Positions 2,189 through 58,681 of a DNA stretch of 64,000 nucleotides are shown here, piece by piece. Origin of the DNA: a virus (Duplodnaviria; Heunggongvirae; Uroviricota; Caudoviricetes). Where the stretch lies: the IMG/VR virus record IMGVR_UViG_3300028042_000001, positions 92,944 through 156,943 of that record; one strand, written 5' to 3'. A model generated the notes under the pieces. That model saw nothing but the letters and a program-made list of their open reading frames with translations. It was not told the DNA's origin and did not search any database. The translations under genes were made by a program, and so were the position numbers. Numbering within the stretch: the first letter of the stretch is position 1; every line of letters starts with the position of its first letter.

Positions 2189-2842
2189 ATGAAAGAAAAT
2201 TATTGTCATATAGTTGGAATTATTGATTGTTCTGGATCTATGGTTGGATTAGAAAATGATGTAATTGGTGGGTTTAATAAATTTGTTGATGATCAAAGAA
2301 AAGCAAAAGGTACAGCAACTATGTCTTTAATTCAATTTGATGATGGTTATTATTCAGATTTTGAATTTGTTAATATTAATGATGTTCCTGATTTAAATCG
2401 TGATACTTATATTCCTCGTGGTATGACTGCATTGTATGATGCTATTGGAAAAACTATTAATTCTACAGGAGAGGTTCTTAAAAATATGAATGAAAATGAT
2501 CGTCCTGATCGGGTTGTTGTTTTTATTCAAACTGATGGACAAGAAAATAGTTCTTTAGAATATAATGCAAATTCAATAAAGCAAATGATTAACAAACAAG
2601 AAGAAATGTATAATTGGTCTTTTGTTTTTCTTGGCGCTAATATTAATGCAAAAAGTACAGCTAATATTATTGGTATTGATAAAAAAATGTCAATGACTTT
2701 TGCCGCAAATAGTAAAGGAACAACTTCAGCGTTTAATTCTGTATCTGAGAATCTTTCTGCTGTTCGGTGTGGAACTAAATTAAATATGTGTTATGAGAGT
2801 AAAGATTATAGTGCTCAAGCTGATGCAGGTCTTCATATTTAA
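2189..2842 (+). CDS. von Willebrand factor type A (vWA) domain protein
   Basis: N-terminal MIDAS motif IIDCSGSM (DxSxS) and vWA-like length/layout; RBS AAGGAG. Confidence 0.6.
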   Translation: MKENYCHIVGIIDCSGSMVGLENDVIGGFNKFVDDQRKAKGTATMSLIQFDDGYYSDFEFVNINDVPDLNRDTYIPRGMTALYDAIGKTINSTGEVLKNMNENDRPDRVVVFIQTDGQENSSLEYNANSIKQMINKQEEMYNWSFVFLGANINAKSTANIIGIDKKMSMTFAANSKGTTSAFNSVSENLSAVRCGTKLNMCYESKDYSAQADAGLHI

Positions 2843-2927
2843 TATAAAAACCCTTGACATTCATTAAAAATATGATTATAGTATTTTTAATGAATAATGT
2901 ATATTAAATTTTGAGGAGGATTACATC

Positions 2928-3185
2928 ATGAAATACAATCAAATAGTTAATAAAATTCGTAGTGTTGTTTATAGTTGTGAAACTAATGAGCAATTAGATG
3001 TTGCTTGTAAATATTCATTTTTGTTAATTGATAATTATTTCATAATTAACAAAAATGATAATATTGATGAACGATATGATAAAATTTTTTTAAAGAATGA
3101 AATGTATAATTGGCTTAAATTTATTACTGTTAATAATAATAACATTAACAGTAGAATTATTGGTGTATGTGAAAAAGAAATATAA
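2928..3185 (+). CDS. hypothetical protein (85 aa)
   Basis: ORF with GAGGAGG RBS. Confidence 0.4.
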   Translation: MKYNQIVNKIRSVVYSCETNEQLDVACKYSFLLIDNYFIINKNDNIDERYDKIFLKNEMYNWLKFITVNNNNINSRIIGVCEKEI

Positions 3186-3193
3186 AAAAAAAT

Positions 3194-3268
3194 GGGGCAT
3201 TAGCCCACGCTGGTAGAGGCACAAGGTTTAAGCCCTTGATAGGATCGGTTCGACTCCGATATGCCCTA
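3194..3268 (+). tRNA. tRNA with anticodon TAA (Leu by standard code) but short variable arm
   Basis: acceptor GGGGCAT/ATGCCCT, anticodon stem CAAGG/CCTTG, loop TTTAAGC, T-arm ATCGGTTCGACTCCGAT; paralog of the tRNA at 15761. Confidence 0.6.
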
Positions 3269-3636
3269 ATTATATGCTGAAATTCCTTTGAATAGGTATG
3301 GATACATAATGGTTTGATTCCATGATTTCAGCTCCATTTTTTTGGATGTATAAATAATAATATGAAATCGTTTAGAGAGTTAAATAATAATGATGTTTGT
3401 GTAAATTGCAAACATTGGCTGAAATTAATGAAGCAACATTCTCATCGTAATACATGATATTGTAGAAAAATAGGAAACAAACCTTCTTTATTTGATAAAT
3501 GGGATGTTACTGATTTTGATAATACATGTATTGATTATAAAAGAAGGAAAAAAATAAAATGAAATTTTATAAACATAAACAGGAAAAATACAAAGGAATT
3601 TAGACCATACATACAATATCGGTCTATATTCACTAT

Positions 3637-3711
3637 GGATCGGTGGCGCAACTGGATTAGCGCATCAGGTTTTTACCCTGAATGTTGAGAGTTCGAATCT
3701 CTCTCGATCCA
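3637..3711 (+). tRNA. tRNA-Lys (anticodon TTT)
   Basis: acceptor GGATCGG/TCGATCC, anticodon stem CAGG/CCTG with loop TTTTTAC, T-arm GAGAGTTCGAATCTCTC. Confidence 0.75.
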
Positions 3712-3760
3712 CAATAATGAATGTTATGAAAAGCTTTAAAAAATGTAAAAAAATAAAAAT

Positions 3761-3837
3761 GCGGATTGATAAGTTAAGGGTTTTGACAAACAGTTTTCCA
3801 AACTGTAAATATGGAGTTCGACTCTCCCGATCCGCTC
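3761..3837 (+). tRNA. tRNA-Gly (anticodon TCC)
   Basis: acceptor GCGGATT/GATCCGC, anticodon stem ACAGT/ACTGT with loop TTTCCAA, T-arm GGAGTTCGACTCTCC. Confidence 0.7.
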
Positions 3838-4123
3838 AATAATGGAATTTATGAATTGGTTTAAGAGAATATTTCATATACATAAATGGTTTTTATTATC
3901 ATATGAATGGTGATGCTATGCGTATTTGTGTTAAGTGTGAATGTATTCAAATTAAGAATAACAATAAATGGAATAAGAAATGAAAGTATCAAGAAACAAC
4001 AATCATAGAAGTAACTCGTATATTATGGCTATTACGCCTGTATGTGTGTCTGTGCGCTTTTTTGATGCGTATCCTATAGTGAAAACTATGTAGCTCATTT
4101 CCTTTATATTAGGAAAACCTGAA

Positions 4124-4160
4124 GGGGGAAATGAGATTAAATCTTGTTTCCCCCTTTTTT
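4124..4160 (+). terminator. rho-independent terminator
   Basis: GGGGGAAA...TTTCCCCC hairpin followed by TTTTTT. Confidence 0.6.
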
Positions 4161-4261
4161 ATTGATCTTTGAAAATAGAATATTGAAAGTATGGTATATC
4201 CATAACTATCACTATACCAATAAGTATAAATATTAATATACTTATAAAATAGGAGATTGTA

Positions 4262-4867
4262 ATGGATATAACTATAGCTAATGTAAAAAGGTTAATTAAA
4301 GATGGATTTACACAGAAACAAATTGCAGAAGAATTTGATATTAGCCCATCTGGATTAAGATATTGGTTAAAAAAATATAATTTAAAAACTAATTATATGG
4401 TTGATAGAAGAACATGGACTGACGATATGCTTATTGAAGCAGTTTCTAAATCTATTAGTATAGCTGATGTTATACGAAATATTGGTTTATCATTAAGACC
4501 GGGGAATTATCCAACAATTAACAAAGTTATAAAACGCCTTGATCTTGATATATCACATTTTAAAGGAAAATCTCATGGTAATGGTGGTATTGTGTATGAG
4601 TTAGAAGATGTTATGATTAGAAATTCTCCATATTCAAGAACATCTTTAAAGAGGAGGTTGTTAAAATGTAATATGATAGAGAATATATGTGATATATGTG
4701 GTATTGGTGAATGGAATAATAAACCAATTGTGATGGTACTCGATCATATAAATGGAATTAATAATGATCATCGTAGAGAAAATTTGCGAATGATATGTCC
4801 TAATTGTAACAGCCAACAAAATACCTTTTGTCGTAGAAATAAAAATGGGGGTATAGCTCAGAGGTAG
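4262..4867 (+). CDS. HNH endonuclease with N-terminal HTH, putative homing endonuclease
   Basis: HTH-like FTQKQIAEEFDISPSGLRYWLKKY; HNH motif LDHINGINNDHRRENL..CPNCN; TATAAATA at 4225-4232 upstream; 3' end overlaps the next tRNA. Confidence 0.75.
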   Translation: MDITIANVKRLIKDGFTQKQIAEEFDISPSGLRYWLKKYNLKTNYMVDRRTWTDDMLIEAVSKSISIADVIRNIGLSLRPGNYPTINKVIKRLDLDISHFKGKSHGNGGIVYELEDVMIRNSPYSRTSLKRRLLKCNMIENICDICGIGEWNNKPIVMVLDHINGINNDHRRENLRMICPNCNSQQNTFCRRNKNGGIAQR

Positions 4868-8443: not shown

Positions 8444-9454
8444 ATGAATTTTAGAAAATATAGTTCTATAGAAAATACATACAGAACAAAAACAATTAAT
8501 TATATTGTTGAATGTGGATATTCTTCTGGTATATGGGTTTCTTCTTTAAAAATTCATGGTGCTAATTATAGTTATTGGAGTGATGGTGATGTTGTAAAAA
8601 AAGCTAGAAAATCAGGATTTCTTGAAGGAGAATCATTTTATGGAGATTCAACATTTAATTATGATCAAAATATATTGAATATGTTTAACAATCTTAAAAA
8701 GCAAGGAGATTTTAGTACTCTTACTGTATATGGAGAAATATATGGAGGAATATACAATCATCCTAATGTAGAAGCTATTAAAAATGTTAAAAAAGTTCAG
8801 AAAGAGGTACAATATAGACCTGATGTTAATTTTATTGTTTTTGATATAAGAGTTGATGATATATTATTAGATCATTATACTGTTGTTGAATTATGTGATC
8901 AATTTGGATTTTTTCACGTACCTGTGTTGGGAATGGGATCTTTTTATGATTTAATGAAAACTCCTGTTGTATTTCCTGATCCTCTTGGTATAATGTTGGG
9001 TTATCCAAAGTTAGAAGATAATGATGCAGAAGGATGGGTGTTAAAACCTGTTATGCCAGAATTTTTTAATAATGGTTCAAGAGTTATTCTTAAAGGTAAA
9101 AATCCTTCCTTTTCTGAAAAAAATGGTGGAAAAAAAGGAAAAATTCATAATACAATAATTGAGATGTCAAAAGAAGGAGATTATATCAAAGAAGAATTAT
9201 TGTTATATATTAATGAAAACAGACTGAGAAATGTATTATCTCATGGGGAGATTTGTAAAATAACTCAAAAAGATTTTGGTAAATTATTAGGATTATTTTC
9301 TAAGGATATTTTTGTTGATTTTTTGAAAGATAATAAAGATAAATTTGATATTATTGATAAGAAAGAACAAATCACTATAAAGAGAATTATGAACAAAACT
9401 GCTGGTGATATTATCCGGTTAAATTTTCTAAATATTATAGATGGTGAATTTTAG
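8444..9454 (+). CDS. rnlB: RNA ligase 2 (T4 Rnl2-like)
   Basis: KYSSIEN N-terminus; nucleotidyltransferase motif I KIHGANYS (T4 Rnl2 KIHGTN); EGWVLKP..NNGSRVILKGKN.SFSEK and KDFGKLLGL blocks match T4 Rnl2 closely. Confidence 0.9.
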   Translation: MNFRKYSSIENTYRTKTINYIVECGYSSGIWVSSLKIHGANYSYWSDGDVVKKARKSGFLEGESFYGDSTFNYDQNILNMFNNLKKQGDFSTLTVYGEIYGGIYNHPNVEAIKNVKKVQKEVQYRPDVNFIVFDIRVDDILLDHYTVVELCDQFGFFHVPVLGMGSFYDLMKTPVVFPDPLGIMLGYPKLEDNDAEGWVLKPVMPEFFNNGSRVILKGKNPSFSEKNGGKKGKIHNTIIEMSKEGDYIKEELLLYINENRLRNVLSHGEICKITQKDFGKLLGLFSKDIFVDFLKDNKDKFDIIDKKEQITIKRIMNKTAGDIIRLNFLNIIDGEF

Positions 9455-14603: not shown

Positions 14604-14682
14604 CTTGACAAATATAATCTCATATTGTATGATAATTTATCAACAATACAAAATATTAATATTACAATATGAGAGGTTTATT

Positions 14683-15057
14683 ATGATTGAAGACTTAATA
14701 ATGGCTAAGAAATATATATCAAAAGCAAACAGAGCATCAAAAAAAGGATTAGATTTTACACTTACTTTTGCTCAATATAAAAGGTTGATGTCTAGAAAAA
14801 CTTGCGCTTATTCTGGTCTTAGATTTTCTGAAATTAATGAAAAACGTGCATGGAAAAATGAATGGTTAGGACTTACTCTTGATCGTATTGATAATAGTAA
14901 AGGATATATTCAAGGTAACGTGGTTCCTGTGTGTAATGGAGTTAATCAATTAAAAGGACAGTGGGAAAATCCTCTTCTTCCTTTTGATGAAAAAACAACT
15001 ATAAAAATCATTACAAAAATTATGTTAGCTAAGAATAATCTTGACATTCTTGATTAG
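14683..15057 (+). CDS. HNH-family endonuclease (LDRIDN..GN type)
   Basis: LTLDRIDNSKGYIQGNVVPVCNGVNQLKGQW motif; start moved to the ATG after GAGAGG RBS; TTGACA-17-TATGAT promoter at 14605. Confidence 0.6.
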   Translation: MIEDLIMAKKYISKANRASKKGLDFTLTFAQYKRLMSRKTCAYSGLRFSEINEKRAWKNEWLGLTLDRIDNSKGYIQGNVVPVCNGVNQLKGQWENPLLPFDEKTTIKIITKIMLAKNNLDILD

Positions 15058-36164: not shown

Positions 36165-37556
36165 ATGAATGAATTTTTAAATAAAGTACCACAAAAAGAA
36201 TCAATCATCTGGAAGACTTTAATCGATGCTGGATATCAAACATATCTAGTTGGTGGTGCTGTAAGAGATATTCTTTTGTGTGAATCTCCTAAAGATTTTG
36301 ATTTTGCTACAAAAGCAACGCCTTCTGATATTAGTAATGTTTTTGAAAACAGTAATTTTAAATTGGATTTTGTTGGAGCATCTTTCGGTGTTATGATGAT
36401 TGATGATATTGAGGTCGCTACTTTCCGAGGAGATCGGTATTTTGGTGGTGGAGACAAGGATGTAGAAATAACATATGTTGATAATATCGATGAAGATCTT
36501 TCTAGGAGGGACTTCACTATCAACGCAATGGCTATGTCTCCTAATGGAAATCTTATTGATCCTTTTGATGGAGAAGCTGATTTAATTAATCATGATTCTA
36601 TTATAATTCGGTTTGTTGGTAATCCTGAAGATCGGATTAATGAAGATCCAAACAGAATTATGAGAGCATTCCGGTTCTCTGCTAGGTTTGATGCTGATTT
36701 TGCTAGAACAACAGCAGTTGCGTTAAATAATAATATAGATAAAGTCAATATGATCGCTCCTGAACGTATTCGATTAGAAATAATTAAAACTTTAAAATCT
36801 ACTAAAGATTCTTCTATATTTTGGGAATTGCTTCGTAACAGTGGTGCTTTGGATATTATATTTCCTGAGATGGGCTATGGATGGAAACATGATCATGGTA
36901 ATCATCATCCAGAAGATGTATGGACTCATAATATGCTTGCTGGTGATTATATAAAAGGAGAAAGACCTTTGCTTAAATTAGCAGGATACCTTCATGATGT
37001 TGGAAAACCTGCGTCATATGATCCTGAAAAAAGAACATTTTATGAACATCATACTATGGGAGCTGATATTATTAGAGAAAGGCTTTCGTTATTGAAATTT
37101 TCTAATGAAGAGATTCGATATATTGTTAATCTTACATTGGTTCATATGGATGGAACACGAGGTATGTCTGATAAAGCTCGTAGGCGTTTAAAGAATAAAT
37201 TAGGTAGATATGATATTAATTGGGAAGAATATCTTACTATTCGTGTTGCTGATAGACATGCTAATCTTTCACGCCCCGATTTTACAGTAAAACAAATCAA
37301 TGATTATATTGAAATGTTTACAATAGATGAAGTTGTACCTATTAGTGTTAATTCTCTTGTATTGTCTGGTGGTCAGATTATAGATATATTTAACTTGACA
37401 CCATCTCCTATTGTTGGTAATATACAAAGAGAGTTGTTAAGATTAGTTGTAGAAAATGGTGATCAATTTAATACAATTCCTCGTCTTGTAGATCATATAA
37501 TGGATGTGTTTGATATTGAACCTGATTTTATAAAAGTTCAGAAATTAACAAAATAA
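36165..37556 (+). CDS. cca: tRNA nucleotidyltransferase (CCA-adding enzyme) with HD domain
   Basis: N-terminal polymerase-beta head LVGGAVRDILL..PKDFDFAT; C-terminal HD motif YLHDVGKP and HH pairs. Confidence 0.8.
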   Translation: MNEFLNKVPQKESIIWKTLIDAGYQTYLVGGAVRDILLCESPKDFDFATKATPSDISNVFENSNFKLDFVGASFGVMMIDDIEVATFRGDRYFGGGDKDVEITYVDNIDEDLSRRDFTINAMAMSPNGNLIDPFDGEADLINHDSIIIRFVGNPEDRINEDPNRIMRAFRFSARFDADFARTTAVALNNNIDKVNMIAPERIRLEIIKTLKSTKDSSIFWELLRNSGALDIIFPEMGYGWKHDHGNHHPEDVWTHNMLAGDYIKGERPLLKLAGYLHDVGKPASYDPEKRTFYEHHTMGADIIRERLSLLKFSNEEIRYIVNLTLVHMDGTRGMSDKARRRLKNKLGRYDINWEEYLTIRVADRHANLSRPDFTVKQINDYIEMFTIDEVVPISVNSLVLSGGQIIDIFNLTPSPIVGNIQRELLRLVVENGDQFNTIPRLVDHIMDVFDIEPDFIKVQKLTK

Positions 37557-42830: not shown

Positions 42831-42878
42831 ATATATTATTAATTGAGTCTCCTAAATAGTATCAAAGGAGACTCAATT

Positions 42879-43349
42879 ATGCATCAACTTAAACAAAGAG
42901 ATATACAATCTGTAAGAAGTAAAATATTAAAAGAAGACCAAGACGGTGTTTGTTTAATATGTGGCAACGAACCAAAGATTCCTTGTCTTGATCATAGTCA
43001 TAAAAAAAGAACAAAAGGTACAGGTTTAGTTAGAGGAGTTTTATGTTCATCTTGTAATATTTTTATAGCAAAATCAGAGAATAATTGTGTTCGGTATGGT
43101 ATTGCTCAAAAAGATCTTCCTAACATACTAAGAAAAACTGCTGATTATTTGGAAAGAGAACATTATCATTATATACATCCATCAGAAGCACCAAAACCAA
43201 AGAAACTAAAGAAACGTAGCTATAATGTGCTTAAAAAGGCGTATAAAGGACGTGCAAAGTTCCCACCATACCCAAAGTCGGGTAAGCTAACAAAACCTCT
43301 CAGAACGCTATATAAGACTTATAATATATTACCTTCATTTTATGCTTGA
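42879..43349 (+). CDS. endonuclease VII (T4 gp49-like Holliday junction resolvase)
   Basis: GVCLICGNEPKIPCLDHSHKKRTKGTGLVRGVLCSSCN matches the EndoVII Zn-binding/HNH-like core (CLICQ..HLDHDH..GKVRGLLCNLCN); start taken at ATG 42879 after the hairpin. Confidence 0.75.
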   Translation: MHQLKQRDIQSVRSKILKEDQDGVCLICGNEPKIPCLDHSHKKRTKGTGLVRGVLCSSCNIFIAKSENNCVRYGIAQKDLPNILRKTADYLEREHYHYIHPSEAPKPKKLKKRSYNVLKKAYKGRAKFPPYPKSGKLTKPLRTLYKTYNILPSFYA

Positions 43350-43709: not shown

Positions 43710-44804
43710 ATGCATGTTATTGATTATTTAAAGGTAAATTCATTAGAAAAACTAAAAGATGAATTTGGAATTAAGGTTAGAGAATATAATAATGGTTTGG
43801 TTGTTTTGAATTATGATCAAATAAATTCACCAAAATATCATCCTATAATTAAAGAATGTAGAGGGTTGATTATAGATATAATTACATTAAAACCAGTATC
43901 TAGGACATTTAATAGATTTTTTAATCTTAATGAAAATGAGCGTGATAATTTTAATTCGTTTCGTCTTGAAAGAGTTGAAGAAAAAGCTGATGGATCTTTG
44001 ATATCTGTTTATTGGTATGATGATAAATGGAATATTGCTACAAGAGGAACAGCATATGCAGAAGGAGAAACTAATACTGGTATAACCTATCATCAGTTGT
44101 TTCTTAATATAATTGGTGTCCCTCTTGATGAATTTATGAAAGATCAATTTAGAAATGAATCATATACATTCGAATTATGTTCTGTATATAATAAAGTAGT
44201 AAAATTATATACAGAGCCTACTATTTACTTATTGAATGCTGTTGAGGTGATAACAGGTATTGAACGTAATAAAGATTCTCTCGATTGTATAGCGGATACT
44301 CTTAATGTAAAACGTCCTAATATATATAATATTGACTTTGCGAGTATTATTAGTTCTTTTGAACAATTCCCTGCAACAGAAGAGGGATATGTTCTTATTG
44401 ATATGGAAGGTAATCGAGTAAAGGTTAAAAATCCTGCATATGTTAATTTACATCATTTAAAAGGAAACGGGCCGTTATCCCCTAAAAGAATAACTAATGT
44501 TGTTTTTAGTGGGGAAACTGATGAAGTTCTTGAATATTTCCCAGAATATACTGAAATATTTGATCCTTATGAAAAATCATACAATCATTTGATAAAGGAA
44601 ATTAAATATGTTTTTTCTGAATTAACCCGGATGGCTTTGAATCAGAAAGATTATGCAGAAAGAGCTGTTAAATTTAATTATTCAGGAATTTTATTTTCAT
44701 TAAGAAAAGGATTGACATTAAAAGAATCTATTGGTAAAATAGGTATTGAAAGTAAGGTTGTCTTACTAGAACAGTTTTTAAAAATATATAACGGAGATTT
44801 ATAA
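43710..44804 (+). CDS. rnlA: RNA ligase 1 (T4 RnlA-like)
   Basis: nucleotidyltransferase motif I EEKADGSLIS (KxDGS), motif EGYVLID; 364 aa, size and layout of T4 Rnl1. Confidence 0.7.
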   Translation: MHVIDYLKVNSLEKLKDEFGIKVREYNNGLVVLNYDQINSPKYHPIIKECRGLIIDIITLKPVSRTFNRFFNLNENERDNFNSFRLERVEEKADGSLISVYWYDDKWNIATRGTAYAEGETNTGITYHQLFLNIIGVPLDEFMKDQFRNESYTFELCSVYNKVVKLYTEPTIYLLNAVEVITGIERNKDSLDCIADTLNVKRPNIYNIDFASIISSFEQFPATEEGYVLIDMEGNRVKVKNPAYVNLHHLKGNGPLSPKRITNVVFSGETDEVLEYFPEYTEIFDPYEKSYNHLIKEIKYVFSELTRMALNQKDYAERAVKFNYSGILFSLRKGLTLKESIGKIGIESKVVLLEQFLKIYNGDL

Positions 44805-56476: not shown

Positions 56477-56923
56477 ATGATTAAATTAAATAAACTCGAC
56501 AAACCTAATACCATCTACGCAGAAGTTATTGAAGATGGTGCTTTGACTCAATTTATAACTGCTATGGAACAACATTTTACTGTTCGTGGTGCGCTTATGC
56601 CTGATGCTCATTTAGGATATACTTTGCCTATTGGTGCTGTTATCGAAACTGAGGGTGTTGTATATCCTTCTTATGTTGGTTTTGATATTGGGTGTGGTGT
56701 GTGTGCTCTTCCTTTATCATGTAGAACTGGTGATATCAAACATAAAGCTCATCGAATTTATGAAATGATTAAACGTAATGTTCCTGTGGGATTTAATAAA
56801 CATAAAAACTCTGTTAAAGAGTCGTATAATTTTTTAGTAAATAAAGATAATTGTACTAAAACTATGCATGAAATTTATCATAATAAAAATGGTGATCTTC
56901 AGCTTGGTACTCTTGGGGGTGGT
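56477..56923 (+). CDS. rtcB: RtcB RNA ligase, exon 1
   Basis: RGALMPDAHLGYTLPIGAV, GFDIGCGV, ..LGTLGGG at exon end (conserved GTLGGGNHFIE is completed by exon 2); the ORF continues into the intron for 10 codons before a stop. Confidence 0.8.
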
Positions 56924-57991
56924 AAAATGACTGCTTCCAGCCCAAGAGGATAATCTAAATATACTGAAATCTCTTCTGATTGACTTGGAAATCCAGTAGC
57001 GAGGATGACAGGGGGCAAGCGTAAAGGTAGCCTGAGAGACTGAGTGAAGAGACTCAACAAAATGTGAGAAGCGACAGTCCGATCTACAGTATAACCTTAC
57101 GGGAAGCTGTAGAGACAACCAGAAATGAGTTGTCCGTTGTTTCAATGAAATGGTATCAAATATCCTGTTTGTATAAATAATATAAACAGGAGGATTTATG
57201 TTAGATAATATTTCAAACAATGATTTTAGTTATATCGTAGGATTTTTACAAGGTGATGGTAATTATTACAAACAATCAAGAAATCGGGGAAAAGTAACAA
57301 TAGAGTTATCTATTAGAGATAAAAATATTATAACCAAGATGATTGATAACCTCTCAGAATATAAATGTTATTATTCTGAGAGGAAAAGAAATACTAATTT
57401 TAAAGATTGTTTTGAATCTTGTAAATTAAGTATTTATGAAAAACGGTTCAGGGATGAAATAGAAAAATACATTCCTGAAGGAAACAAATCACATATTATA
57501 GAACCACCTTTAAAAGAAGATTGGTTTTCTTCGTTTGATTATTTAAGAGGAATATATGATGCTGATGGTAGTATTGGTATAACTGGTAATAATAGACCGT
57601 TTATATCATTATGTACTGATTCAAAACCGTTAAAACAGTTTGTAATAAGAATATTAAATGATAATATTGGTATTGTAAAACGCATAAATCGTAACAAAAG
57701 AGACAATATATATAATATTGTTTGTTACGATGAAGATGCTGTTAATTTTGCTGATTTATTATATAATAATTCTGATATGTATTTAGACAGAAAGTTTGTT
57801 AGTTATAAAAAAATACAATCATGGGTTAGAACCACACCAAAACGAAAGGGAACTAAGAAAACATGGTTGCCTATTGAAGATAAAATAATAATGAATAATG
57901 ATTATTCATTAGATGAAAAGGTTATCTTACTCAATCGTAGTAAAAGTTCTATCAAGACTAGAATATGGAGAAACAATAGTAACAAAACATG
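56924..57991 (+). mobile_element. group I intron in rtcB carrying a LAGLIDADG homing endonuclease gene
   Basis: exon 1 ends with U; P1-like pairing CTCTTGGG / CCCAAGAG across the 5' splice site; intron ends with G immediately before exon 2 codon AAT (N of NHFIE); locally GC-richer structured core 56950-57170. Confidence 0.7.
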
Positions 57992-57992
57992 A
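57198..57992 (+). CDS. LAGLIDADG homing endonuclease (double motif), intron-encoded
   Basis: YIVGFLQGDGNYY and YLRGIYDADGSIG motifs; TATAAATA at 57172-57179 with AGGAGG RBS; stop codon overlaps the 3' splice site. Confidence 0.75.
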   Translation: MLDNISNNDFSYIVGFLQGDGNYYKQSRNRGKVTIELSIRDKNIITKMIDNLSEYKCYYSERKRNTNFKDCFESCKLSIYEKRFRDEIEKYIPEGNKSHIIEPPLKEDWFSSFDYLRGIYDADGSIGITGNNRPFISLCTDSKPLKQFVIRILNDNIGIVKRINRNKRDNIYNIVCYDEDAVNFADLLYNNSDMYLDRKFVSYKKIQSWVRTTPKRKGTKKTWLPIEDKIIMNNDYSLDEKVILLNRSKSSIKTRIWRNNSNKT

Positions 57993-58681
57993 ATCATTTT
58001 ATTGAGATTGGTATTGATGATTATGATTGTCCTTGGATTATTATTCACTCTGGATCAAGAGGAGTTGGTCATGGATGTGCTACTCATTATATGAAAACTG
58101 CTCATCCTAATAATAAAGCAGGAGAAGGTCATTATGGATTCATGGTTGATTCTGATAATGGTAAAAATTATATAAAAGATCTTAATTTTTGTTTGGATTT
58201 TGCTTTATTGAATCGTAAAGTTATGTTGCGGTTAGTTGTTGATTCTATTAAACAACTTGGTATTGAATGTAGTGGTGATTGGGAAAATATGATTAACAGG
58301 AATCATAATCATGCAGAGTCTAAAGATGGTATTCATTGGATTCATCGTAAAGGTGCTACTCATGCAGAGAATGGTATGCTTGGAGTAATTCCGGGTAATA
58401 TGCGTGATGGTTCATTTATTGTAAGAGGACTTGGTAATGAAGATGCTTTATGTTCGTCATCTCATGGCGCTGGCCGGGTTCTTGGACGTAGAAAGGCTAA
58501 AGAGAATCTTGACCTTAATGAGTTCAAGGATACTATGGAAGGTATTGTTGCTAATGTGGATTCTGGTACTCTTGATGAATCTCCTATGGCTTATAAAAAT
58601 ATATTTGATGTAATGCGTCTTCAGGATGGTCTTGTTGATGTTATTACTCATATTAAACCTATTATTAATGTAAAAGGATAG
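57992..58681 (+). CDS. rtcB: RtcB RNA ligase, exon 2
   Basis: NHFIEIG, HSGSRGVGH, HNHA, SSSHGAGR blocks characteristic of RtcB C-terminal half. Confidence 0.8.
   Translation, partial: NHFIEIGIDDYDCPWIIIHSGSRGVGHGCATHYMKTAHPNNKAGEGHYGFMVDSDNGKNYIKDLNFCLDFALLNRKVMLRLVVDSIKQLGIECSGDWENMINRNHNHAESKDGIHWIHRKGATHAENGMLGVIPGNMRDGSFIVRGLGNEDALCSSSHGAGRVLGRRKAKENLDLNEFKDTMEGIVANVDSGTLDESPMAYKNIFDVMRLQDGLVDVITHIKPIINVKG

Follow-up and report, generated by a model that had tools for sequence, protein, structure and literature searches.

The stretch of DNA analysed here (64,000 nucleotides, positions 92,944 to 156,943 of the IMG/VR virus record IMGVR_UViG_3300028042_000001, and called the window below) belongs to a T4-like phage, and the subject of this text is its rtcB gene, together with the sequence that interrupts it. 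Three open reading frames (ORFs) follow one another head to tail on the plus strand, at 56477-56953, 57198-57992 and 57989-58681. Pfam matches the first to positions 14-93 of the RtcB model, the middle one to LAGLIDADG_3, and the third to RtcB positions 154-426. The locus is laid out as follows.

56477-56923, plus strand: rtcB exon 1, 149 codons, ending ...GTLGGG (Pfam RtcB positions 14-93)
56924-57991, plus strand: predicted group I intron, 1068 nucleotides (nt), from the first base after U56923 through G57991
57198-57992, plus strand: LAGLIDADG homing-endonuclease gene, 264 amino acids with two motifs, lying in the P9.2 loop of the intron (Pfam LAGLIDADG_3, E 2e-14)
57992-58681, plus strand: rtcB exon 2, 229 codons, first residues NHFIE (Pfam RtcB positions 154-426)

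The gene is continuous once the insert is taken out. The initial annotation, made from the letters of this DNA alone, had proposed that the two outer ORFs together rebuild the block GTLGGG|NHFIE, and this is borne out by Pfam, by single-piece tblastn alignment and by alignment to solved structures; the check suggested there, aligning the spliced ORF to RtcB models, places the two halves at the Pfam positions given above. The junction 56923|57992 is the boundary between the codons of GTLGGG and NHFIE. Exon 1 reads ...GGT ACT CTT GGG GGT GGT, and its last base is U56923; exon 2 reads AAT CAT TTT ATT GAG from A57992, and the base before it is G57991, so that the terminal U of exon 1 and the terminal G of the intron are both as first described. 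Left unspliced, the exon 1 frame continues to a TAA at 56951-56953. In tblastn the spliced RtcB, of 378 residues, matches uninterrupted phage RtcBs in one piece along 99% of its length, best of all that of Salmonella phage Arash (53% identity, residues 3-378), and in the alignment to PF01139 (RtcB) the conserved blocks are contiguous once the insert is removed. Against solved RtcB structures the alignment runs gapless through the junction (GTLGGGNHFIEIG versus GTLGSGNHFLEV of T. thermophilus; the same stretch in the P. horikoshii structure is GSLGSGNHFLEV), and the structure alignment puts the split inside the GGGNHF block, not at a domain border. The His of this block aligns with His203 of P. 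horikoshii RtcB, which we take to be a metal ligand. When RtcB is aligned to other loci by tblastn, the alignments break at residue 149/150.

Shifting the splice point by -1, +1 or +2 leaves the protein identical, yet none of these shifts gives a U·G pair, a terminal G and P10 in register. The junction 56923|57992 was chosen because it is the sole option that gives all three, and the predicted ligated-exon junction is GGGGGUGGU|AAUCAUUUU. The elements of the proposed RNA structure are listed below.

56910-56948, plus strand: P1 hairpin, 56910-56923 paired with 56933-56948; bulge AG at 56939-40, mismatch U56920·U56936
56924-56932, plus strand: P10 guide AAAAUGACU, in the P1 loop, pairing with the first 9 bases of exon 2 (57992-58000)
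56949-56969, plus strand: J1/3 linker, there being no P2; contains the motif AUAAUCUAAAUAUACUGAAA and the in-frame stop for exon 1 read-through
56970-57134, plus strand: ribozyme core, P3-P9.1, from covariation, profile match and folding z-score
56970-76/57046-52, plus strand: P3, with 5-6 covarying pairs
56984-87/57009-12, plus strand: P4, core helix
56991-94/57003-06, plus strand: P5, core helix
57013-16/57030-33 plus 57019-20/57027-28, plus strand: P6, core helix
G57036 and 57038-41 with 57076-80, plus strand: P7, with A57037 bulged, forming a pseudoknot with P3
57053-56/57065-68, plus strand: P8, followed by J8/7 at 57069-75
57084-89/57107-12, plus strand: P9, core helix
57114-19/57129-34, plus strand: P9.1, with the loop CAGAAAUGA
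57137-57143, plus strand: P9.2 5' strand UUGUUUC, pairing with 57970-57976 across the endonuclease ORF
57970-57976, plus strand: P9.2 3' strand GAAACAA, within the endonuclease coding sequence
57979-57991, plus strand: 3'-terminal element GUAACAAAACAUG, comprising the GUAACA motif, a spacer and the terminal G57991

The structure was assessed on two alignments, both with ORFs removed: A1, of 27 members of a compact intron family plus the window intron (28 sequences), and A2, of eight rtcB introns of the window's type. Each was compared with controls in which the helix partners were slid along the sequence, and with 500 shuffles. In A1 the 33 core pairs are 95.4% paired against 39-45% in the slid controls, compensatory changes occur at 17 of the 33, and none of the 500 shuffles reaches the observed value. 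The 72 pairs of A2, which include P1, P10, P9.1 and P9.2, are 94.4% paired against 43-49%, and 29 of them show a compensatory change, again with no shuffle of 500 doing as well. RNAalifold independently gives P3, P4, P5, P6, P8 and P9. The closing pair of P7, beside the bulged base, covaries in A1 as A-U (19), G-C (8) and U-A (1). G57038-C57079, the presumed guanosine-binding pair, is G-C in 27 of the 28 family members and in all eight rtcB introns, and we take it to be the counterpart of G264-C311 in Tetrahymena. Around P7-P9 the intron may resemble those of Twort type.

At the 5' splice site, P1 forms a U56923·G56933 wobble in its distal part (GGUGGU/GCUUCC), which is U·G in all eight rtcB introns; P1 as a whole is 93% paired across them. 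In two of these (L064 and L067; our own locus numbers are used where loci have to be told apart) its pair 16-40 is U·G in place of G-C, the exon having a synonymous G-to-U substitution and the guide the matching C-to-G. The initial annotation had let the pairing CUCUUGGG/CCCAAGAG span the splice site; these strands (56910-17/56941-48) are instead the proximal part of P1 and end 6 nt upstream of it. P10 has 8 of its 9 pairs, in register with P1, and is 88% paired across the eight introns, with a compensatory A-U to G-C change in L068. Between P1 and P3 lies a 20-nt single-stranded segment, AUAAUCUAAAUAUACUGAAA, that is almost invariant in rtcB introns (L063-L076, L114-L140). It is kept although some of the host RtcBs are less than 30% identical, the rest of the intron family lacks it, and no partner strand for it was found.

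At the 3' end, P9.2 is UUGUUUC/GAAACAA in the window, UUGUCUC/GAGACAA in L070 and UUGUUUUG/CAAAACAA in L068; compensatory versions are found in L068, L070, L076, L078 and L073, and in L076, L078 and the Bacillus phage 278BB001 the two strands are unrelated yet complementary. The GUAACA motif is common to the whole intron family (A1, A2), and stands before the 3' splice site of the rtcB introns also. The terminal G precedes AAYCAYTT in all homologous introns.

Three further measures single out the same region. A profile hidden Markov model built without the window sequence has one match in the window, at 56965-57138 (E 1.7e-35). The 5' quarter of the insert folds with z -3.8, better than all 200 shuffles. 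Its G+C content (0.44-0.47 at 56925-57149) exceeds that of the flanks (about 0.23-0.35; window about 30%), as was first pointed out for the intron core. Comparison of sequences supports all the parts of a group I architecture for 56924-57991, the P3/P7 pseudoknot among them, so that the original proposal of a group I intron with a LAGLIDADG gene splitting rtcB is upheld with a full P1-P10 structure backed by covariation.

Two other kinds of element were considered and rejected. A group II intron is at odds with the lack of a reverse transcriptase (among Pfam domains only those of LAGLIDADG type were found) and with a terminal G that follows a canonical group I core. RtcB is among the frequent intein hosts (PMC4760082), and the RtcB inteins of archaea and bacteria resemble the window element in being selfish, in often carrying a LAGLIDADG enzyme and in targeting the conserved core of RtcB. 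Unlike it, they are in-frame insertions that are spliced out of the protein. In the window element the endonuclease ORF has its own ribosome-binding site and is preceded by a stop codon and by structured non-coding RNA of about 270 nt, and removal must therefore be at the RNA level.

The intron ORF is a LAGLIDADG homing endonuclease, as originally named from the sequence, on the evidence of the Pfam match and of the conservation of both motifs, GFLQGDG and RGIYDADGS. In an alignment of 11 sequences (A3), D20/G21 and D121/D123/G124 are invariant, and a C-terminal segment, W..ED...S......RS..S...R.WR, is conserved. What follows the conserved WR (NNSNKT and the stop) is the P9.2 3' strand, the GUAACA motif and the terminal G read as protein: the last 6-7 codons and the stop run from the P9.2 3' strand through the terminal G, and the TGA at 57990-57992 straddles G57991|A57992, in agreement with the earlier observation that the stop codon overlaps the 3' splice site. 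This overlap we regard as incidental to the protein, because the tail merely reads the 3' elements of the intron and because the endonuclease ORF of L064 stops earlier, inside P9.2.

Homing-endonuclease genes cycle through gain, decay and loss, and the copy in the window might be a decayed one, its ribozyme or endonuclease inactive and rtcB a pseudogene in this phage. We consider this very improbable: every consensus helix is intact in the window (the sole mismatch, the U·U in P1, is common to all eight sequences), both exons have full-length open frames with conserved RtcB blocks, and the endonuclease ORF is full length with all the invariant residues of its family.

The endonuclease gene is preceded by one further structural element.

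57163-57191, plus strand: hairpin before the endonuclease gene, 12 bp, -21.1 kcal/mol, z -5.2

We regard this hairpin as real. Its 3' arm overlaps the beginning of the Shine-Dalgarno sequence GGAGG (57189-57193), and its outer stem pairs part of the endonuclease AUG. The motif TATAAATA, noted at the outset as a late-promoter consensus before the endonuclease ORF, is at 57172-57179, at the top of the hairpin and 19 nt before the endonuclease ATG, so that a transcript starting a few bases downstream would be without the inhibitory arm. A late promoter at this position is plausible, given the case of I-TevI in T4. In its favour, the phage has T4-like replication genes, and of the ten plus-strand copies of TATAAATA in the window six or seven lie 19-71 nt before ORF starts that have a Shine-Dalgarno sequence; against a promoter, most homologous introns lack the motif. 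L064 has the same hairpin with TATAAATA, and L063 has it without the consensus motif. In other homologues the Shine-Dalgarno sequence, judged by eye, is apparently paired with an upstream segment.

Two side observations concern these signals. The copies of TATAAATA at 1468, 4225, 16055, 27116, 36106 and 57172 on the plus strand stand upstream of ORF starts, and the flanks at 1468 and 27116 (uuguuugUAUAAAUA) resemble those before the endonuclease gene. All rtcB introns have the sequence CAAUGAAAUGGUA after the P9.2 5' strand; in L065, L067 and L070 a second copy stands directly before the Shine-Dalgarno sequence, and the latter can pair with an upstream AACCU(U/A)CUA segment, which suggests a different way of masking the ribosome-binding site in phages without the TATAAATA hairpin.

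The same arrangement recurs in other genomes. The window endonuclease has more than 100 homologues, and all ten of those examined with their context lie in or beside rtcB. An exact-match look-up of the protein gave no entry, although an identical protein is listed for a contig of 156,943 bp. The order rtcB N-terminal part, about 220-280 nt, endonuclease, rtcB C-terminal part is found in seven metagenome loci (L063, L064, L065/66, L067, L068/69, L070/71 and L076/77). With the J1/3 motif, which is specific to the rtcB introns, 26 more metagenome loci were recovered. In all 23 of these where the 5' splice site could be located, ..LGGG is the end of exon 1, and in all 19 where both sites were found NHFIE is the beginning of exon 2; the boundaries are identical in these 19 loci and in the eight homologous rtcB introns. 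The introns are polymorphic in length: among the 19, twelve have 231-250 nt, two have 327 and 397 nt, and five have 963-1098 nt. An ORF-less intron of 262 nt in L114 (11116-11377) has P9.2 as a plain hairpin, followed by GUAACAAAUAACUG|. From the lengths of the ORF-less forms we conclude that about 240 nt make up the whole ribozyme and that the endonuclease gene is an insertion in L9.2.

It is worth adding that in metagenomes the ORF-less rtcB introns (231-262 nt) outnumber those bearing an endonuclease. In L078 the N-terminal part of rtcB (775-1779, 334 amino acids) gives a faint Pfam intein signal besides the intron, and this gene may contain both an intein and an intron. The N-terminal part of rtcB in L070 (370-1710, on a 270-kb contig) is apparently interrupted further, in part by an opposite-strand ORF. 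In related loci, rtcB has neighbours such as Thg1 (L070) and NADAR (L067).

Among cultured phages, the Bacillus phages BSP36 and 278BB001 have the same order without any annotated intron, the three parts being named 'RtcB N terminus', 'HTH homing endonuclease' and 'RtcB C terminus', and the intervening sequence is also found in rtcB of the Bacillus phages vB_BsuM-Goe17/20/27; all of these phages are Herelleviridae. The 278BB001 insert is like that of the window in its insertion point (GGG|NHF), its P9.1 loop CAGAAAUGA, the position of the ORF after P9.1, the closing of P9.2 over the ORF and the GUAACAG 3' end, and the Bacillus phage endonuclease is homologous to that of the window (37% identity in the alignment, 38-39% by tblastn). 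The insert differs in having a classical P3-P6 half (AAUUGCGGGG / AAUCCGCAGCC), with only the J8/7-P9.1 part aligning to the window family, and that weakly (E about 0.001-0.01), and in that its host phages are of a Gram-positive phage family. No paper that describes an rtcB group I intron was found in searches of the literature. The statement in the initial annotation that such an intron is uncharacterised therefore holds as far as papers go, but examples are present, unannotated, in the GenBank records of these Bacillus phages.

A homologue of the endonuclease (37% identity) also occurs free-standing in a bacterial chromosome, that of Kitasatospora sp. GCA_040303245.1 (L074/L075), at 2501-3307 on the plus strand. 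An intact rtcB (397 amino acids) lies convergently 40 nt away, at 3347-4540 on the minus strand, and this copy may show the same endonuclease lineage in a free-standing stage, next to the gene that it targets.

The ORF-less copies and the hairpin bear on whether the intron splices by itself. It might need a protein, either the LAGLIDADG enzyme acting as a maturase or a host chaperone, especially for closing the 830-nt loop of P9.2, and the endonuclease would then serve both splicing and mobility. A LAGLIDADG maturase is known in a bacterial group I intron (Thermotoga, as cited in a passage of PMC3984707), and the core is small with an A+U-rich periphery. Such dependence seems to us unlikely, however, since the ORF-less copies common at the same site imply that the ribozyme presumably works without a protein in cis, and the hairpin appears built to keep ribosomes, and hence the protein, away during expression of rtcB.

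The distribution likewise bears on the idea that no RNA splicing takes place at all, and that invasion by an endonuclease has made two genes whose products assemble into an active ligase. There is a precedent in NrdA of Aeromonas phage Aeh1, split by mobE (PMC3045599); gene callers and GenBank annotators do list the rtcB halves as separate coding sequences, and the window has an in-frame ATG at 57989. For the window element we give this a very small chance. The roughly 220 nt of non-coding sequence before the endonuclease are far better conserved than the host protein, with the 72 pairs and 29 compensatory changes described above; in most homologues the bases before the terminal G do not make a start codon (AAG, CAG, CUG), and they have no Shine-Dalgarno sequence; the ORF-less versions of 231-262 nt divide rtcB at the same point with no endonuclease present; and the break falls within GGGNHF and not between domains.

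We conclude, with a probability of about 0.88, that a mobile group I intron interrupts what is a single rtcB gene in this divergent T4-like phage. For the splicing chemistry, the cleavage specificity and the use of the promoter we infer the following course. Positions 56924-57143 of the pre-mRNA, the 5' part of the intron, would fold into a compact P2-less group I ribozyme. The guide would hold exon 1 through P1 (U56923·G56933), and the same loop would hold exon 2 through P10; the long-range P9.2 would close over the endonuclease insert of about 830 nt, bringing the GUAACA...G 3' end to the core. Two guanosine-dependent transesterifications would then join GGU|AAU and restore GGGNHF. The LAGLIDADG protein would cut an intron-less rtcB at the same conserved sequence, the predicted target being GGTACTCTTGGGGGTGGTAATCATTTTATTGAG, GGTACTCTTGGGGGTGGTAATCATTTTATTGAGATT, and repair from the intron-bearing copy would complete homing. 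By analogy with T4, the hairpin over the ribosome-binding site may hold down translation of the endonuclease from the long rtcB transcript, and TATAAATA within the hairpin may start late transcripts that are without the inhibitory arm, as for I-TevI of T4.

Several observations weigh against this conclusion. Rfam RF00028 (Intron_gpI), run on the window, including on 321 bases with E up to 10, gives no match. The ATG at 57989 is in frame with exon 2, and going by this one sequence exon 2 might be translated separately. No spliced junction of this phage, whether as cDNA or as an intron-less allele, was found in metagenome records. A sequence search of the Protein Data Bank with the endonuclease found no relative with a solved structure, so that its presumed specificity comes from its genomic association. 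As for the promoter, TATAAATA occurs 21 times in the A+T-rich window against 29 expected, i.e. it is not enriched, and a scan of 20 window ORFs showed no homologue of gp55 or gp33.

Concerning the first of these, RF00028 likewise has no match on a homologue in Roseobacter phage CRP-118 or on any member of the compact family that was tried, and it scores 71 bits (E 1e-17) on the 278BB001 intron, at the same site in rtcB. The missing match is set aside because of the covariation tests and of this match in 278BB001, and is read as limited coverage by the model and not as absence of the group I fold. The initial annotation had suggested a search with this model as a check and had taken the lack of a detectable group I core as evidence against the intron; no core was detected by it, but as the model is blind to the compact introns, relying on that check would have led to the group I reading being wrongly discarded.

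The compact family extends well beyond rtcB. In blastn the region has one match, at window positions 56967-57044, 82% identical over 78 nt to CRP-118, where the matching position is the gap between two coding sequences annotated as 'ribonucleotide reductase'. The core pattern GATTGACTTGGAA N10-38 GCAAGCGTAA recovered 60 IMG/VR loci, and the family sharing GAUUGACUUGGAA...GCAAGCGUAA sits in ribonucleotide reductase, capsid-like and other genes. These introns (the 60 loci and CRP-118) are like the window intron in their P3-P9 core, GUAACA 3' motif and lack of P2; they are unlike it in having other host genes, in being mostly ORF-less or carrying a different ORF, and in being without the 20-nt J1/3 motif of the rtcB introns. 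In eight loci (L002, L008, L019, L024, L038, L047, L058 and L060), ribonucleotide reductase introns carry an ORF from the P8 region (MIVYWIREK.HTDIYTEGYVGITKK...), which to the eye looks GIY-YIG-like. A GIY-YIG-like ORF in P8 set against LAGLIDADG in L9.2 suggests that one ribozyme family has acquired different endonuclease types in different loops. One locus, L014, has tandem introns at 781-1034 and 1108-1262, within about 100 nt; one is matched by RF00028 at 103 bits and is unrelated to the family, and the next is a family member invisible to Rfam, cut by the end of the locus.

The intron appears far less diverged than the genes that house it. Exon 2 of RtcB is 70% identical to that of the window in L064, 41% in L076, 35% in 278BB001, 32% in L068 and 27-30% in L065, L067, L070 and L078, whereas alignment A2 has a mean column identity of 79% and the endonucleases of the metagenomic rtcB introns are 42-64% identical among themselves. 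Horizontal spread is therefore indicated. The site is also found empty, the uninterrupted 23-nt junction ACTCTTGGKGGTGGT|AAYCAYTT being present in 35 viral contigs. Loci L127 and L128 agree in the ten residues that flank the junction on either side, but their introns measure 1098 and 246 nt, with and without the endonuclease gene, which suggests a recent gain or loss of the endonuclease gene. Such a pattern would be left by an element that homing passes on horizontally and whose endonuclease gene is gained and lost in cycles. Four stages of a life cycle appear to be present at the one site: empty, ORF-less intron, intron with endonuclease, and free-standing endonuclease (Kitasatospora).

We lean slightly towards a wider interpretation, namely that the family is an uncatalogued, cosmopolitan lineage of P2-less compact ribozymes, one branch of which has specialised on rtcB with a dedicated LAGLIDADG lineage and moves between unrelated groups of phage. 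These groups would be T4-like phages, the phages of 200-270 kb contigs (which may be jumbo phages) and Bacillus Herelleviridae, the last with a swapped 5' half of the ribozyme.

The closest known systems in layout are the T4 introns td/I-TevI, nrdD(sunY)/I-TevII and nrdB/I-TevIII. Like the window intron, they are group I introns in genes of nucleic-acid metabolism, with an endonuclease ORF looped out and a hairpin over its ribosome-binding site that contains a TATAAATA-type motif; the logic of hairpin plus late promoter is documented for I-TevI, I-TevII, I-TevIII, segB and mobE (PMC2988022). The likeness to the td/nrdB/nrdD arrangement drawn from the start is thus a functional one, the same layout being found in rtcB with a LAGLIDADG gene in L9.2 and a P2-less core. 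The window intron differs from those of T4 in its host gene, in having LAGLIDADG and not GIY-YIG or HNH, in the position of the ORF and in lacking P2; its core, besides being RF00028-negative, has no similarity to T4 introns detectable by blastn. Phage introns mostly carry GIY-YIG, HNH, PD-(D/E)xK or EDxHD enzymes (PMC3984707).

The phage is recognised as T4-like by its gp43-, UvsX-, gp41- and gp61-like genes. It is without a close cultured relative: megablast of the region against 50,697 phage genomes gave no match, and its DNA polymerase is 41% identical to those of cyanomyoviruses. The window has an unusually full set of RNA-repair genes, with an Rnl2-like ligase at 8444-9454, a CCA-adding enzyme at 36165-37556 and an Rnl1-like ligase at 43710-44804, besides RtcB at 56477-58681. 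Two ORFs, at 14605-15057 and 42843-43349, match PHROGs of HNH/endonuclease VII type and may be free-standing homing endonucleases in the replication module.

What is described here is a new host gene and a new lineage of a well-known kind of mobile element. With it rtcB, the gene of an RNA-repair and splicing ligase, joins the short list of genes that host group I introns in phages, and a LAGLIDADG enzyme is added to the repertoire of T4-type phages, described so far as GIY-YIG and HNH (PMC2988022). As the Rfam model misses the family, such genes are deposited as two 'RtcB fragments' with a stray endonuclease; five Bacillus phage genomes are cases in point, and metagenomic gene catalogues would miscount the intron-split rtcB genes. 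The endonuclease likely recognises a site of 20-30 bp coding for GTLGGGNHF, and could add a new specificity to the LAGLIDADG engineering toolbox. The empty, ORF-less, endonuclease-bearing and free-standing states provide a comparative system for homing cycles and for the origin of mobile introns, and if the wider interpretation is true, the rtcB site would be a natural system in which to test how endonuclease genes and ribozymes come together.

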